A stretch of DNA of 13,819 nucleotides, taken from the IMG/VR virus record IMGVR_UViG_2534681934_000027. One strand, written 5' to 3'. The notes under the pieces are model-generated. The model was not told where the DNA came from, made no database searches, and saw only the letters and a list, made by a program, of their open reading frames with translations. This DNA comes from a virus (lineage: Duplodnaviria > Heunggongvirae > Uroviricota > Caudoviricetes). This document shows positions 1 to 12,358 of the stretch, in pieces; the first letter of the stretch is position 1; the number at the start of each line of letters is the position of its first letter. The translations under genes were made by a program, and so were the position numbers.

Positions 1-1230
1 ATGAGCAGAGCACTTAACAAACTGAGCGATACACAGCTGAGGAAAATCAACGGCACACCCGCCCAAAAAACAGCCTTTCTTAATGACGGTGGAAACCTGA
101 GCGTCAGGCATTCAACCAGTGGCCTTTTAACCTGGTATTTCACTTACAGGGCCGGAACGGGAAGGGGGGCACCACCGGAACGCATTAAGCTGGGAAATTA
201 TCCTGATCTGAGCCTGAAATCAGCCAGGGAAAAAGCCGCCCAGTGTCGCGCATGGCTGGCAGAGGGGAAAAATCCACGTCATGAGCTTAATTACACCGTA
301 CAGGAAGCGTTAAAGCCGGTAACGGTTGGCGATGCGCTCACCTACTGGCTTGAGTCGTACGCAAAGGAAAACCGCGTGGATTATGCCGCCCTGAAAAAGC
401 GCCTTAATAATCACGTAATACAGCACATTGGTGCTATGCCGCTGGATAAATGCGAGCTACGGCACTGGCTGGCCTGTTTTGACCAGGTGGCAAAGCGAAC
501 GCCTGTTACTGCCGGATTCTTGCTACAGACGTGCAAACAGGCGCTTAAGTTCTGCCGGAGGCGGCGCTATGCAATCAGCAACGTTCTTGATGATATGAGT
601 GTGGCGGACGTTGGGAAAAAACCGGATATAAGCGAGCGTGTCTTAAGCACCAAAGAACTGGGCGAATTATTGCAGGCACTGGACAAAAAAATATTCTCCC
701 CCTACTACATCGCGTTAATCCGCCTCCTGATTGTGTTCGGATGCCGGACGGTAGAACTGAGGTTATCGGAGATCAGCGAGTGGGATTTTACCGAAATGCT
801 CTGGACCGTTCCGAAGGAGCACAGCAAAACGAAGGTAGCCATATTCCGGCCTATACCGGAAGCAATACTGCCGTTCATCACGCAGCTGGTGGAGCAGAAC
901 AGGCACACGGGCTTATTGCTGGGGGAAGTGAAACAGGAGGCCAGCGTATCGCAGTATGGAAGATTAGCGCACAGGAGGCTTAATCACCCTCACTGGTCAC
1001 TGCATGACATCCGGCGCACCTTTACAACCATGCTGAACGATTTAGGCGTTGATCCGCATGTCGTGGAGCAGCTTACAGGCCACCAGATGCCAGGAATGCA
1101 GCGAGTTTATAATCATTCCCGTTATCTGGATGCGAAACGCAATGCGCTGGATATGTGGACGGAGCGGTTAGGGATACTGGCGGGAACACATGAAAACGTA
1201 ACCACGCTACCAGTAGCCAGAAGAAAATAA
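1..1230 (+). CDS. int: P4-family tyrosine integrase (409 aa)
   Basis: ORF begins with ATG at window base 1. N-terminal arm-binding-like region (LSDTQLRKI..DGGNLSV..WYFTYR..LGNYPDLSL..AREKA) and C-terminal catalytic region with HDIRRTF and GHQ..RVYNHSRYL motifs, typical of P4/CP4-57-type integrases. Family assignment from memory, not a search. Confidence 0.9.
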   Translation: MSRALNKLSDTQLRKINGTPAQKTAFLNDGGNLSVRHSTSGLLTWYFTYRAGTGRGAPPERIKLGNYPDLSLKSAREKAAQCRAWLAEGKNPRHELNYTVQEALKPVTVGDALTYWLESYAKENRVDYAALKKRLNNHVIQHIGAMPLDKCELRHWLACFDQVAKRTPVTAGFLLQTCKQALKFCRRRRYAISNVLDDMSVADVGKKPDISERVLSTKELGELLQALDKKIFSPYYIALIRLLIVFGCRTVELRLSEISEWDFTEMLWTVPKEHSKTKVAIFRPIPEAILPFITQLVEQNRHTGLLLGEVKQEASVSQYGRLAHRRLNHPHWSLHDIRRTFTTMLNDLGVDPHVVEQLTGHQMPGMQRVYNHSRYLDAKRNALDMWTERLGILAGTHENVTTLPVARRK

Positions 1231-1270
1231 TTTTTTTCGTGTTTTTTCAGTATGCGCATACTGGATATGC

Positions 1271-1333
1271 GAACAGATACAACGTGCAACAATGAGCAAC
1301 AATGAGCAACAATGTGGAACAACTACGAACAAG
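1271..1333. repeat. Phased 10-bp direct repeats (CAACAATGAG x2, CAACAATGTG, GAACAACTAC, GAACAAG) just downstream of int
   Basis: Read directly: units at 1287, 1297, 1307, 1317 and 1327 with one-helical-turn spacing. Plausible arm-type integrase or AlpA/excisionase binding array. Confidence 0.5.
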
Positions 1334-1604
1334 AGGCGAAAAAGCGTACGGATTTATAAGTAGCTGATTTTTAATGTGTTACTGGTTTTTTATACACTAG
1401 CGAATCACTCTTTAAAGAGCGAGAAAAAAGGCATGGAACAATATTTTATGCCTTTGTATTAACATGAATTTAAAAGATTTTATTCTTACTTTTTCATTTT
1501 CTGTAAATCATACATCCTCAGTATTTGCCATTCATCACTCTAGCGGGAACAATACGACACAATAAGACACCTGATGACTCTTTAAGAAACGAAAGGGGGC
1601 AATA

Positions 1605-1793
1605 GTGTTAAGCACTGATCGGTTTATACGTGAAAAAGAATGCGAAAAACTAACCGGCCTTAGCCGTACGTGTCGCTACCGCCTGGAAAAGGCCGGACAA
1701 TTCCCATCACGTCGTAAACTTGGCGGTCGTTCCGTTGGCTGGTCTTTATCCGAGGTTCTGGCCTGGAAGGATAGCTGCAAGGCAGTTCATTAA
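1605..1793 (+). CDS. alpA: AlpA-family phage transcriptional regulator / excision factor (62 aa)
   Basis: GTG start 6 nt after AAGGGGG Shine-Dalgarno. Sequence pattern (..GRSVGWSLSEVLAW..) resembles AlpA of CP4-57-type elements, and the int-alpA arrangement is typical of P4-like and PICI islands. Confidence 0.8.
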   Translation: MLSTDRFIREKECEKLTGLSRTCRYRLEKAGQFPSRRKLGGRSVGWSLSEVLAWKDSCKAVH

Positions 1794-1939
1794 TCACGCT
1801 GGCGGCACACAGCCGCCACACATCAATCATCTGAACACAGAGCTATAACCATGAAGATTGAATATACGCCAGAACGTGGGCGGGGATTCGTTCGCCCTGG
1901 TGAGACTGGAAAACCACAAAATTGGGGTTTTTCAGGCAT

Positions 1940-1967
1940 AAAAAAAGCGGCCCCGAAATGGAGCCGC
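1940..1967 (-). terminator. Putative rho-independent terminator for the minus-strand RHH operon
   Basis: On the minus strand: stem GCGGC (1963..1967) / GCCGC (1947..1951) with an 11-nt loop, followed by seven U (plus-strand A-run 1940..1946). Confidence 0.4.
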
Positions 1968-10758: not shown

Positions 10759-11081
10759 TTTTTCCAGAGGCGGTCGAACTCCGCCTTCGCAAAATAAGCG
10801 GAAGCCTGGCGAAGGATATCGTTACTGCGGCGCAGTTCACGATTTTCACGTTCCAGCTCTTTCAGACGCTGACGTTCAGCGCTGGTGAGCCCACCATCAC
10901 CGCCCCCGGTATCCCGCTCATGCTGGCGAACCCAGACACGCAGAGTCTCCGGCGTACAGCCAATCTTTGGGGCAATGGAACAAATTGCCGCCCACTGTGA
11001 GTCATATTCATCCTGACTTTCCAGAACCATACGAATCGCCCGCTGACGGACTTCGGGGGAAAAACGAGTATTTTTAGTCAT
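10755..11081 (-). CDS. IS3-family transposase OrfA (108 aa, helix-turn-helix/leucine-zipper part)
   Basis: [22 protein letters not shown].. typical of IS3-family OrfA. Ends in an A6 run at the orfA/orfB overlap, consistent with programmed -1 frameshifting. Confidence 0.9.
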
Positions 11082-11221
11082 CCTGTTTACCTCTTTCTCA
11101 GGGAGTTTAGTCTCCAGGATTTCCGGGGCGGTTCAACAACCTCCCACAGATACTGGCTGATTACTTGAAAGAAACAACCGGAAACGTACCGGAAAAGTTG
11201 CTACAGAAGAAAGGCGAGTAA

Positions 11222-11443
11222 CAGACGCGCAATTATTGAACAAAAATGAGAAAGGATCTGATAATGGCATTTTCTGGCTAAAATGCCTCGTGTCAGATCC
11301 TTTCTTTTTTTAATATTTTCATTGTTAAACAGTCTGTTACAGAGAAGAAGATCGGATCTGACTTTTGCCGGAAAATTCTCATAAACAGATAAAAACCGCG
11401 AGGTCGCCGCCCCGTAACGGGCCATAATTCCAGGAAGGACCCG
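11222..11443 (-). promoter_or_regulatory. Second lambda-type cos site, inverted relative to the first
   Basis: 11396..11443 is the exact reverse complement of 9191..9238 (48/48). Predicted cohesive-end 12-mer at 11401..11412. Minus-strand continuation (TTTATGAGAATTTTCCGG, CGATCTTCTTC, AAAGAAAGGA plus palindrome) resembles remembered lambda cosB. Confidence 0.7.
11250..11310 (+). terminator. Long hairpin plus T-run downstream of the terS 3' end
   Basis: Perfect 12-bp outer stem GAAAGGATCTGA (11250..11261) / TCAGATCCTTTC (11293..11304), inner 8-bp stem GGCATTTT / AAAATGCC, then six T. Read on the minus strand the same hairpin resembles the lambda cosB palindrome. Confidence 0.5.
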
Positions 11444-11476
11444 ACGACACCAGACTATCAGAGCGATGGGGGCACA

Positions 11477-11758
11477 ATGACAGAAGCCGAACTACTGGGA
11501 TTAATCCGCCGCGTCGCCGGAATCAGCCAGCAGCATGACGAACAGGCCACACAGCCGGACAGCGTGACCGCTGAAAATTATGTGCGTGTTGTAGCGGAAG
11601 TGATGCGCCGTGATGGTATAGAACTTAATGGCGTTGATATGCGCAACATACGGAACCGCGTTCTTGAAATGCTGGCCTACAATCGCCGCGTTGAACTGTA
11701 TCGGGAGAAAGAAAAAATAACGTACCACTGGAAGAAGCCGGAACGGCTGCGGCGGTAA
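11477..11758 (+). CDS. Hypothetical protein (93 aa)
   Basis: ATG 5 nt after GGGGG Shine-Dalgarno. No family recognised. Confidence 0.5.
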   Translation: MTEAELLGLIRRVAGISQQHDEQATQPDSVTAENYVRVVAEVMRRDGIELNGVDMRNIRNRVLEMLAYNRRVELYREKEKITYHWKKPERLRR

Positions 11759-12358
11759 CTTGCTGATATTCCCGATAACGCAAAATTGCGCTGGCTACAT
11801 CCTCACATCTGAGGACTGTTAATCAGAAGGCCGGAATATATTCACAAACTACGAAATTTTCGTAGTTTAATTAATGGTCAGATTAATCGCTAACCCGCTG
11901 ATATTTTCGGAAACCTCAATTTGAGGAAGTCGGAAGCGTCACCCTTCATATTCTGAATGGTCATAATGACCACGCAGACCATCAAGGCAACCACAACGAA
12001 CATCGTTACGGTTGGAGCTTTTACCCCACTGGGGGAAAGGTATTACGATAATCATAACACCTACCGAACAGGTAAAACCCACCAGCCTGATTAACAGTTA
12101 ACCGGAAAAAAAATCCGGTAGCCCCGTTATGGGGATCCCCATATCGACATTAACGCCCCTCATGAATTGGTGCGCTTCCCCCTGGAAAGATTACCCGCCT
12201 GTATATTTCTTGTGTCTATTTGTTCCACGTTGTTTCATACAGTGCACCGAACGGTGTAGTTAATGGTGTAGTCAATTTGCTGTTTTTAGCACTTTTTGCA
12301 GTGTGGGTTGTTTAATTAAATCAATGGGTTGCCTTGCTGTGGTGATAAAAGGACATAT

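Follow-up and report, generated by a model that had tools for sequence, protein, structure and literature searches.

EcCICFT073 (11.4 kb) and EcCIRM12579 (11.2 kb, from Escherichia coli O55:H7) belong to the phage-inducible chromosomal islands (PICIs) of Gram-negative bacteria and share the position between ycfD and phoQ, the attachment core GGACATATTT, and the accessory gene perC (Fillol-Salom et al. 2018, Table S1, PMC6092414). The ycfD–phoQ attachment (att) site has been described as PICI-specific (PMC6092414). The stretch of DNA treated here—the 13,819-nucleotide IMG/VR virus record IMGVR_UViG_2534681934_000027, referred to as the window—very probably carries a Gram-negative PICI that belongs to the EcCICFT073 family and is of the classical rather than the capsid-forming kind: an IS629-disrupted copy of EcCIRM12579, integrated by its own tyrosine integrase at GGACATATTT between roxA (ycfD) and phoQ of E. 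coli O157:H7. The element, the att site, the family, and the family life cycle have already been published and are not new.

The life cycle is known from EcCICFT073, the only member for which helper induction, excision, replication, and high-frequency transfer were shown, with lambda, phi80, and resident prophages (PMC6092414). A lambdoid helper switches on alpA, and AlpA—in the PICI family the helper-induced activator of the island cycle—activates the rightward operons (PMC6092414). Excision and replication require int and pri (PMC6092414), and transfer requires the cos sites together with the helper terminase (PMC6092414, PMC6739421). The island replicates from its own Rep/iteron origin, its lambda-type cosN is cut by the helper large terminase (TerL), and it exits in helper-made virions (PMC6092414, PMC6739421). 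EcCICFT073 has two cos sites, and its RppA (c1503, 144 aa) heterodimerizes with the helper small terminase (TerS), redirecting it to the island cosB (PMC6739421). Among E. coli PICIs, four Pri-Rep alleles occur, the origins lie downstream of rep, where an AT-rich region has a set of iterons on either side (Fig. 2 legend), and some islands encode TerS (PMC6092414). The PICI model of SatelliteFinder consists of five core components, namely int, alpA, pri-rep, capsid morphogenesis, and terS, and 97% of the PICIs that have all five (“Type A”) come from E. coli (PMC10085698). Portal and connectors are “forbidden” components in SatelliteFinder and divide the PICIs from the capsid-forming PICIs (cf-PICIs).

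By megablast, 354 of 5426 complete E. coli genomes contain at least 80% of the window; one of them, that of the O157:H7 strain DEC4E, matches it over the full length at a reported 100.0%. The sole differences from DEC4E are two 1-bp poly-A deletions near 6648 and 9395: compared with that assembly, A7 has become A6 at about 6641–6647 and A8 has become A7 at about 9388–9394, possibly a matter of homopolymer sequencing. The second deletion takes away the more upstream start used in the annotation of the 180-aa TerS and leaves the ATG at 9396.

In DEC4E, the gene order is pepT, roxA (ycfD), island, phoQ, phoP, and purB. The att core GGACATATTT occurs exactly twice in the 30-kb DEC4E locus and brackets the island: the attL core lies 171–180 nt 5′ of window base 1 (locus L001, 7820–7829), and the attR core lies at window 12351–12360, overlapping the phoQ stop codon. 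Just inside each island end are two tandem GGTGTAGTYAAT repeats (window 12253–12276; left pair L001, 7955–7978), which are probably arm-type integrase sites. The distance from core to core is about 12.5 kb; subtraction of 1313 bp for IS629 and its target duplication gives an island of about 11.2 kb. In K-12 MG1655, the empty site is a roxA–phoQ spacer of 75 bp with a single core-like GGGCATATTT overlapping the phoQ end. The original prediction, made from the letters of the window, had placed an island next to phoQ, had named roxA/ycfD as the gene 3′ of phoQ in K-12, and had proposed comparison with an insertion-free strain; the first two hold, and K-12 shows the empty site. The end that it gave, 11760, does not hold: since attR lies at 12351–12360 and attL outside the window, the island continues for about 600 bp past this position and also past the left window edge. 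The 8 kb on each side of the island in DEC4E (flanks roxA-pepT-potAB and phoQ-phoP-purB) are free of phage structural and lysis genes, the neighbors which the original prediction had named as speaking against a satellite. The window has no tRNA gene, and tRNA-targeted integration was rejected on this ground.

The features that define the island are as follows (window coordinates):

1–1230, plus strand: tyrosine integrase, 409 aa (Pfam Arm-DNA-bind_3 and Phage_integrase)
1605–1793, plus strand: AlpA-family regulator (PF05930, E 5e-17)
3982–5382, plus strand: RepA-family replication initiator/helicase, 466 aa (AAA_25, E 2e-43)
5382–5571, no strand assigned: replication origin, an AT-rich region at about 5478–5520 with a set of AAAGYGAGR iterons on either side, six in all and one of them inverted
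7126–9161, plus strand: capsid module, consisting of a 68-aa protein, a gpE-like capsid protein (7332–8387), a gpD-like decoration protein (8400–8735), and a 137-aa protein (8748–9161)
9190–9266, plus strand: cos1, cosQ-like part and cosN (9222–9233), with the first approximately 30 nt to the right near-identical to lambda
9396–9825, plus strand: terS (Nu1-type), 5′ part, codons 1–143 (PF07471, E 2e-22)
9826–11135, minus strand: IS629/IS1203, 1310 bp, in terS, with ACA target duplication at 9823–9825 and 11136–11138
11139–11221, plus strand: terS 3′ remnant, last 27 codons and stop (ORF, open reading frame, restored on removal of the insertion sequence)
11254–11445, minus strand: cos2, inverted relative to cos1, with cosN at 11401–11412 and a cosB side bearing three TCAGATCC (11254–11361)
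12253–12360, plus strand: right attachment region, with the two GGTGTAGTYAAT arm-type repeats and the attR core

All five core components of the SatelliteFinder PICI model were found in the island by Pfam and PHROGs. The integrase domains lie at one edge (1–1230), AlpA adjoins int, and transcription runs rightward with the main genes all on the plus strand. The island has its own replicase, followed by two iteron sets around an AT-rich region. Capsid morphogenesis is represented by homologues of PF03864 capsid and PF02924 decoration proteins, and the small terminase by a Nu1-family terS that is present though split by IS629. No forbidden PICI component (tail, holin, portal, or connectors) was found in the island by Pfam, PHROGs, and RefSeq annotation, and no portal, protease, TerL, tail, or lysis gene in the window by the ORF list, Pfam, and PHROGs; the size without IS629 (about 11.2 kb) falls within the 8–15 kb or so of such islands. 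Site and core coincide with the published family att site ycfD–phoQ and its GGACATATTT. The gene content and order given in the original prediction—integrase, AlpA, rep operon with iterons, a reduced morphogenesis and packaging set, and cos—are confirmed item by item, as is a length of 11 to 12 kb lacking the five groups of genes just named for the window. Its statement that the gene set fits no recognized satellite family is wrong, because the island matches the EcCICFT073 family and has all five core components; EcCIRM12579 was catalogued in 2018. When the phage collection was searched with the island by megablast, only IS629 copies matched, which means that the island has no close phage relative.

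RepA shares only its N-terminal 122 aa (62% identity) with the 584-aa primase-family Pri-Rep of EcCICFT073, and DNA similarity to EcCICFT073 is absent from about 4347 to 5655. The shared N-terminus corresponds to window 3982–4350 and to 6083–6457 of locus L005 (EcCICFT073). This arrangement points to an N-terminal domain common to both proteins, attached to a different replication enzyme in each, and a Rep different from that of EcCICFT073 fits the published statement of four alleles. The iteron AAAGYGAGR occurs six times within 190 bp and nowhere else in the window, compared with 0.41 copies expected; none of 200 shuffles reaches six.

The packaging region features two cos sites in inverted orientation. 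The cosN of cos1, GGGCGGCGACCT (9222–9233), is identical to that of lambda: with cosN set off by hyphens, cos1 reads TTACGGGTCCTTCCTGG...GTTACG-GGGCGGCGACCT-CGCGGATTTTCGCTATTTATGA and lambda reads TTACGGGTCCTTTCCGG...GTTACG-GGGCGGCGACCT-CGCGGGTTTTCGCTATTTATGA, from which the cosQ-like and cosN parts are lambda-type. The following cosB1 (9267–9395) is non-lambda and carries an inverted repeat of TACACCAAC with 18-nt spacing at 9330–9363. On the side of cos2, the three copies of TCAGATCC lie within 110 bp, compared with 0.31 expected; this motif and the TACACCAAC inverted repeat are candidate TerS-binding repeats. Over 76 nt, the two cos sites agree; beyond this stretch, they are unlike each other and unlike lambda cosB. 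Hence, the cos site of the original prediction is real, with the lambda-identical cosN at 9222–9233, but is one of two inverted sites, the second having its cosN at 11401–11412. A megablast of 83 bp of cos1 in O157 genomes found only the two cos sites of the island itself, and this test is blind to resident helper prophages since no run of 28 bases is common to cos1 and lambda-type cos sites. The segment 9264–11367 (IS629 excluded) is non-homologous to EcCICFT073. Flanked at each end by one of the inverted 76-nt cos repeats, it comprises cosB1, terS (or rpp), and cosB2, and looks like an exchangeable packaging-specificity cassette.

The protein encoded in this segment is a TerS of the Nu1 type. 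Removal of IS629 and one ACA restores a 170-aa ORF that is identical, from residue 11 (ATG at 9396) onward, to the 180-aa WP_000835281.1 of RM12579 and FRIK2455. Aligned with lambda Nu1, the intact TerS shows 37% identity from residue 23 through to the C-terminus; with N15 gp1, the identity is 44% over 92% of the length. In lambda, the extreme C-terminus of Nu1 is the gpA-binding end. Complete E. coli genomes with this terS outnumber those with rppA (766 versus 97). Among the former is ATCC 25922, whose island EcCIATCC25922, in the 2018 catalogue, lies at another att site and has a terS 97.6% identical to the one here.

The Nu1-like protein sits exactly in the rppA slot between two inverted cos sites and adjoins a non-lambda cosB, and Rpp proteins have been proposed to derive from TerS, with which they share the DNA-binding fold (PMC6739421). 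It could thus act in an Rpp-like manner, forming a heterodimer with the helper TerS that blocks phage cos recognition and redirects the complex to the island cosB. We regard this as unlikely. The Nu1-like protein has no match to RppA in BLASTP and no hit in PDB, where phmmer retrieves no RppC even at E 10, whereas RppA as the positive control finds RppC (6HLK) at 5e-31; an Rpp-type cos PICI, in which Rpp heterodimerizes with helper TerS, was rejected for this reason. In addition, the protein is of full TerS length compared with 144–153 aa for Rpp, aligns with lambda Nu1 through the gpA-binding end, and covers 92% of N15 gp1.

Packaging specificity is instead most likely supplied by the TerS of the island itself, because a full-length Nu1-type TerS occupies the RppA slot next to a non-lambda cosB. 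In the proposed mechanism, this TerS would bind its own cosB and recruit a gpA-type helper TerL via its conserved C-terminus; cleavage at the lambda-type cosN would then lead to packaging of the island in helper-made virions.

In the window copy, this gene is interrupted. IS629, a feature absent from the original prediction, splits terS after codon 143, and the last 27 residues of TerS (NLPQILADYLKETTGNVPEKLLQKKGE), which align with the extreme Nu1 C-terminus, are replaced by IS-derived sequence. Since the region aligned to the gpA-binding end of Nu1 is removed, a DEC4E-type copy is probably defective for efficient packaging. The integration, regulation, replication, and capsid genes are intact. 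Low-level transfer via the bare cos sites is conceivable by analogy, because cloned EcCICFT073 cos sites alone gave reduced plasmid transfer (PMC6739421). The terS–IS629 junction occurs in DEC4E only, among the 5426 genomes. The FRIK2455 lineage, likewise O157:H7, has the same island with IS629 in the 5′ end of the integrase gene instead (L006, 2444–3657); IS629 has hit the island independently in different O157:H7 lineages—terS in DEC4E and int in FRIK2455. The sole Rfam match is an ALIL frameshift pseudoknot of the IS3 type at 10684–10800 inside IS629.

The capsid module resembles the head genes of lambda at a distance. The major capsid protein (E 5e-50 for PF03864) is 43% identical to lambda gpE over the full length, and the decoration protein is 36% identical to lambda gpD; the closest capsid homologue in the phage collection reaches 47% identity at most. 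The 137-aa protein matches the C-terminal part of phrog_53 (lambdoid protease/scaffold, E 5e-9) and is 37–39% identical to Nu3-annotated genes of the phages PhiR12/PhiR5, which also hold the closest capsid proteins; BLASTP against lambda gpC/Nu3 gave no match. It is a candidate Nu3-like scaffold, distantly homologous to the lambdoid Nu3/gpC C-terminal proteins, a likeness of which no mention was found in the accessible PICI papers. Identities to EcCICFT073 are 96.6% for the capsid, 98.2% for the decoration, and 96.4% for the 137-aa protein. The ratio of nonsynonymous to synonymous substitution rates (dN/dS) between window and CFT073 is 0.13 for the capsid gene and 0.08 for int, which indicates that these genes are maintained by selection. 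EcCICFT073 was already reported with the capsid gene c1499 and the head-decoration gene c1500, and in the experiments with it all DNA packaged with lambda as helper was phage-sized (PMC6092414).

These genes could have a more far-reaching role. TerS-encoding Type A E. coli PICIs might, with their natural helper, build their own gpE/gpD/Nu3-like shell or co-assemble it on the helper portal and package via their own Nu1-type TerS and the helper TerL, with the cosB–terS–cosB unit between the inverted cos sites as the exchangeable packaging-specificity cassette. Such islands would be functional intermediates between classical PICIs and cf-PICIs. We consider this quite doubtful.

The assignment to a classical PICI that is packaged through its own TerS faces several counterarguments. 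Reports of induction, excision, or transfer were not found in the accessible literature for this island or for any TerS-encoding E. coli PICI, and the TerS-encoding islands of IHE3034 and 18098, tested in 2018, were not mobilized by resident prophages (PMC6092414). Deletion of c1499 or c1500 in EcCICFT073 left interference and transfer unchanged (PMC6092414), so that part of the “morphogenesis module” is without a demonstrated role. The autonomous-TerS mechanism is put forward from homology only, and, as to the packaging defect, the 221-aa ORF of the truncated TerS fusion may encode a still partly active protein.

A decayed full lambdoid prophage that lost its portal, protease, TerL, tail, and lysis genes would account for the lambda-type character of the capsid, decoration, Nu3-like, and Nu1-like genes and of cos, and for the presence of an IS element. 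This origin is highly improbable. RM12579, FRIK2455, and CFT073 have islands of equally compact architecture with identical size and boundaries, and at least 80% of the window is found in the 354 genomes mentioned above; the architecture is experimentally mobile in EcCICFT073. The capsid protein, at most 47% identical to any phage homologue, is under purifying selection; the int-alpA-rep backbone is of the P4/PICI type and comes with an iteron origin, not with a lambdoid immunity and O–P region; and the att site is the one published as PICI-specific. The helper-dependent, cos-type satellite of the original prediction, as opposed to a lambdoid prophage, is upheld.

A cf-PICI like EcCIEDL933 (Sakai Sp7), resident of the same att site in other O157:H7, with 99% Int identity, 90% identity each of PerC and a 93-aa protein, and an encoded capsid protein, is scarcely credible, since the portal, prohead protease, head–tail adaptor/connector, and TerL of the Sakai element were not found in the window ORFs (Pfam, PHROGs), nor was the HNH gene listed for cf-PICIs in the papers, the window capsid belongs to the lambda gpE family (PF03864), and portal and connectors are what separates cf-PICIs in the SatelliteFinder PICI model. 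A P4-like satellite, characterized by the psu-delta-sid operon, epsilon, and alpha primase, was rejected as well: the ORFs tested gave no match to Psu, Sid, delta, or epsilon in Pfam and PHROG scans, Rep is a RepA helicase, and cosN is identical to lambda. Int and AlpA alone are common to PICIs and P4-like satellites (PMC6092414).

The remaining features of the island are as follows:

2063–2467, minus strand: two leftward small ORFs, 62 aa (2063–2251; phrog_21027, E 3e-16) and 57 aa (2294–2467; phrog_228, E 1.5e-6)
2598–3985, plus strand: early rightward operon, consisting of an Icd-like gene (2598–2795), genes for 70-, 154-, and 77-aa proteins, and a DUF4222 protein gene (3686–3985)
5583–6524, plus strand: 83-aa protein, SSB (5831–6241), and PerC-family regulator (6252–6524) (Pfam SSB, PerC)
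6650–6874, plus strand: 74-aa protein of unknown function (phrog_1957)
11477–11758, plus strand: 93-aa protein of unknown function, conserved in the right arm of islands at the roxA–phoQ site

In the left arm, the integrase is 96.8% identical at the protein level to EcCICFT073 Int and 99% to that of Sakai Sp7/EcCIEDL933, and AlpA is 93.5% identical to EcCICFT073 AlpA. The 57-aa leftward ORF matches an Arc-like ribbon-helix-helix repressor (phrog_228), and EcCICFT073 has two leftward ORFs at the equivalent place. Of the divergent small repressor in the original prediction, the leftward ORFs thus stand, the second being Arc-like, while their repressor role is a candidate only and unproven. The NCBI annotation places an overlapping plus-strand Icd-like pseudogene over these ORFs. 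A 314-aa plus-strand ORF (1851–2795) overlaps them, the first part of which is an Icd-like pseudogene in RefSeq and the last 65 codons an Icd-like gene. The early operon was assigned by NCBIfam phage_ICD_like, PHROG families of unknown function, and DUF4222 (Pfam); the NCBIfam scan gave nothing beyond the Icd-like call. Its positions 2990–3454 form one 154-aa ORF, where EcCIRM12579 has an 80-aa and a 77-aa gene; PHROGs has a full-length family (phrog_2512) for it as well as families for each half. A promoter consensus scan performed no better than shuffles and was left unused.

SSB is 97.1% identical to the EcCICFT073 protein, and PerC is 90% identical to PchE of Sakai (pchE product) and 80% to its EcCICFT073 counterpart. 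The terminator scan identified terminators at 6531–6548 after perC and at 6894–6911 after the 74-aa gene. Near-identical hairpins AGCCGGAGAAATCCGGCT with a T-run lie at these two positions and at about 9167–9186, after the 137-aa gene; the AGCCGGAGAAATCCGGCT hairpins mark operon ends. The 93-aa protein has counterparts in EcCICFT073 (88% identity) and in the Sakai cf-PICI (ECs_1599, 90%) and has no match in Pfam, NCBIfam, or PADLOC. None of the ten small unknown ORFs is a defense gene according to PADLOC. Between the 93-aa gene and the arm-type sites lie about 500 bp (11759–12250) with no annotated gene and ORFs of 29–47 aa only; from 11890 onward, the right end is alignable with EcCICFT073.

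As an annotation, the island is useful in that it documents different satellites at one site in O157:H7 and independent IS629 hits. It also highlights two questions on the family, namely the role of the capsid, decoration, and scaffold-like genes and the packaging mechanism of TerS-type E. coli PICIs.

EcCIRM12579, compared by RefSeq protein accession, is the named element closest in content. It has the same site, att core, gene order, and, after removal of IS629 from the window copy, size of about 11.2 kb; 13 annotated proteins of the island have identical RefSeq accessions in DEC4E, including Int, AlpA, the Icd-like, DUF4222, PerC, capsid, decoration, and 93-aa proteins. It also has the same RepA-type Rep and Nu1-type terS. 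The window differs by IS629 in terS, by the 154-aa ORF in place of the 80-aa and 77-aa genes, and by different accessions for RepA, SSB, and the 68-aa and 137-aa proteins.

EcCICFT073, the prototype of the cos-type PICIs in Gram-negative bacteria, features gene-for-gene synteny with the window and the same att site and core. DNA identity is 88% for int/alpA, 92% for ssb-perC, 94% for the capsid block through cosN, and 90% for the right arm, and the Int, AlpA, DUF4222, SSB, capsid, decoration, and 137-aa proteins are 93–98% identical. It also has two inverted cos sites with lambda-like cosQ/cosN and an iteron origin after rep. At the DNA level, it differs in two modules: the replication gene, encoding a primase instead of a RepA helicase, and the inter-cos cassette, encoding RppA instead of a Nu1-type TerS with its own cosB.

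EcCIEDL933 sits at this att site in Sakai, where it bears the annotation prophage Sp7 (locus L002, 2712–18172), and in EDL933. The two integrases are 99% identical, the left arms are related through perC, and the 93-aa gene is common to both. The central module of EcCIEDL933, however, is completely different: a full set for head formation and packaging, with a major head protein, protease, portal, adaptors, TerS, and TerL, and with HNH according to the cf-PICI papers, whereas the window has only the gpE/gpD/Nu3-like proteins and a Nu1-type terS. With a classical PICI here and a cf-PICI in Sakai/EDL933, O157:H7 lineages differ in the central module that they carry at one att site, and the shared backbone points to module exchange between PICIs and cf-PICIs.

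The pac-type Staphylococcus aureus pathogenicity islands (SaPIs) have their own TerS, which redirects the helper large terminase (PMC6092414), and the island may resemble them by analogy in this respect. In contrast to these SaPIs, it is cos-type with a lambda cosN, carries a Nu1-family TerS and an AlpA activator rather than an Stl repressor, and belongs to an unrelated lineage.

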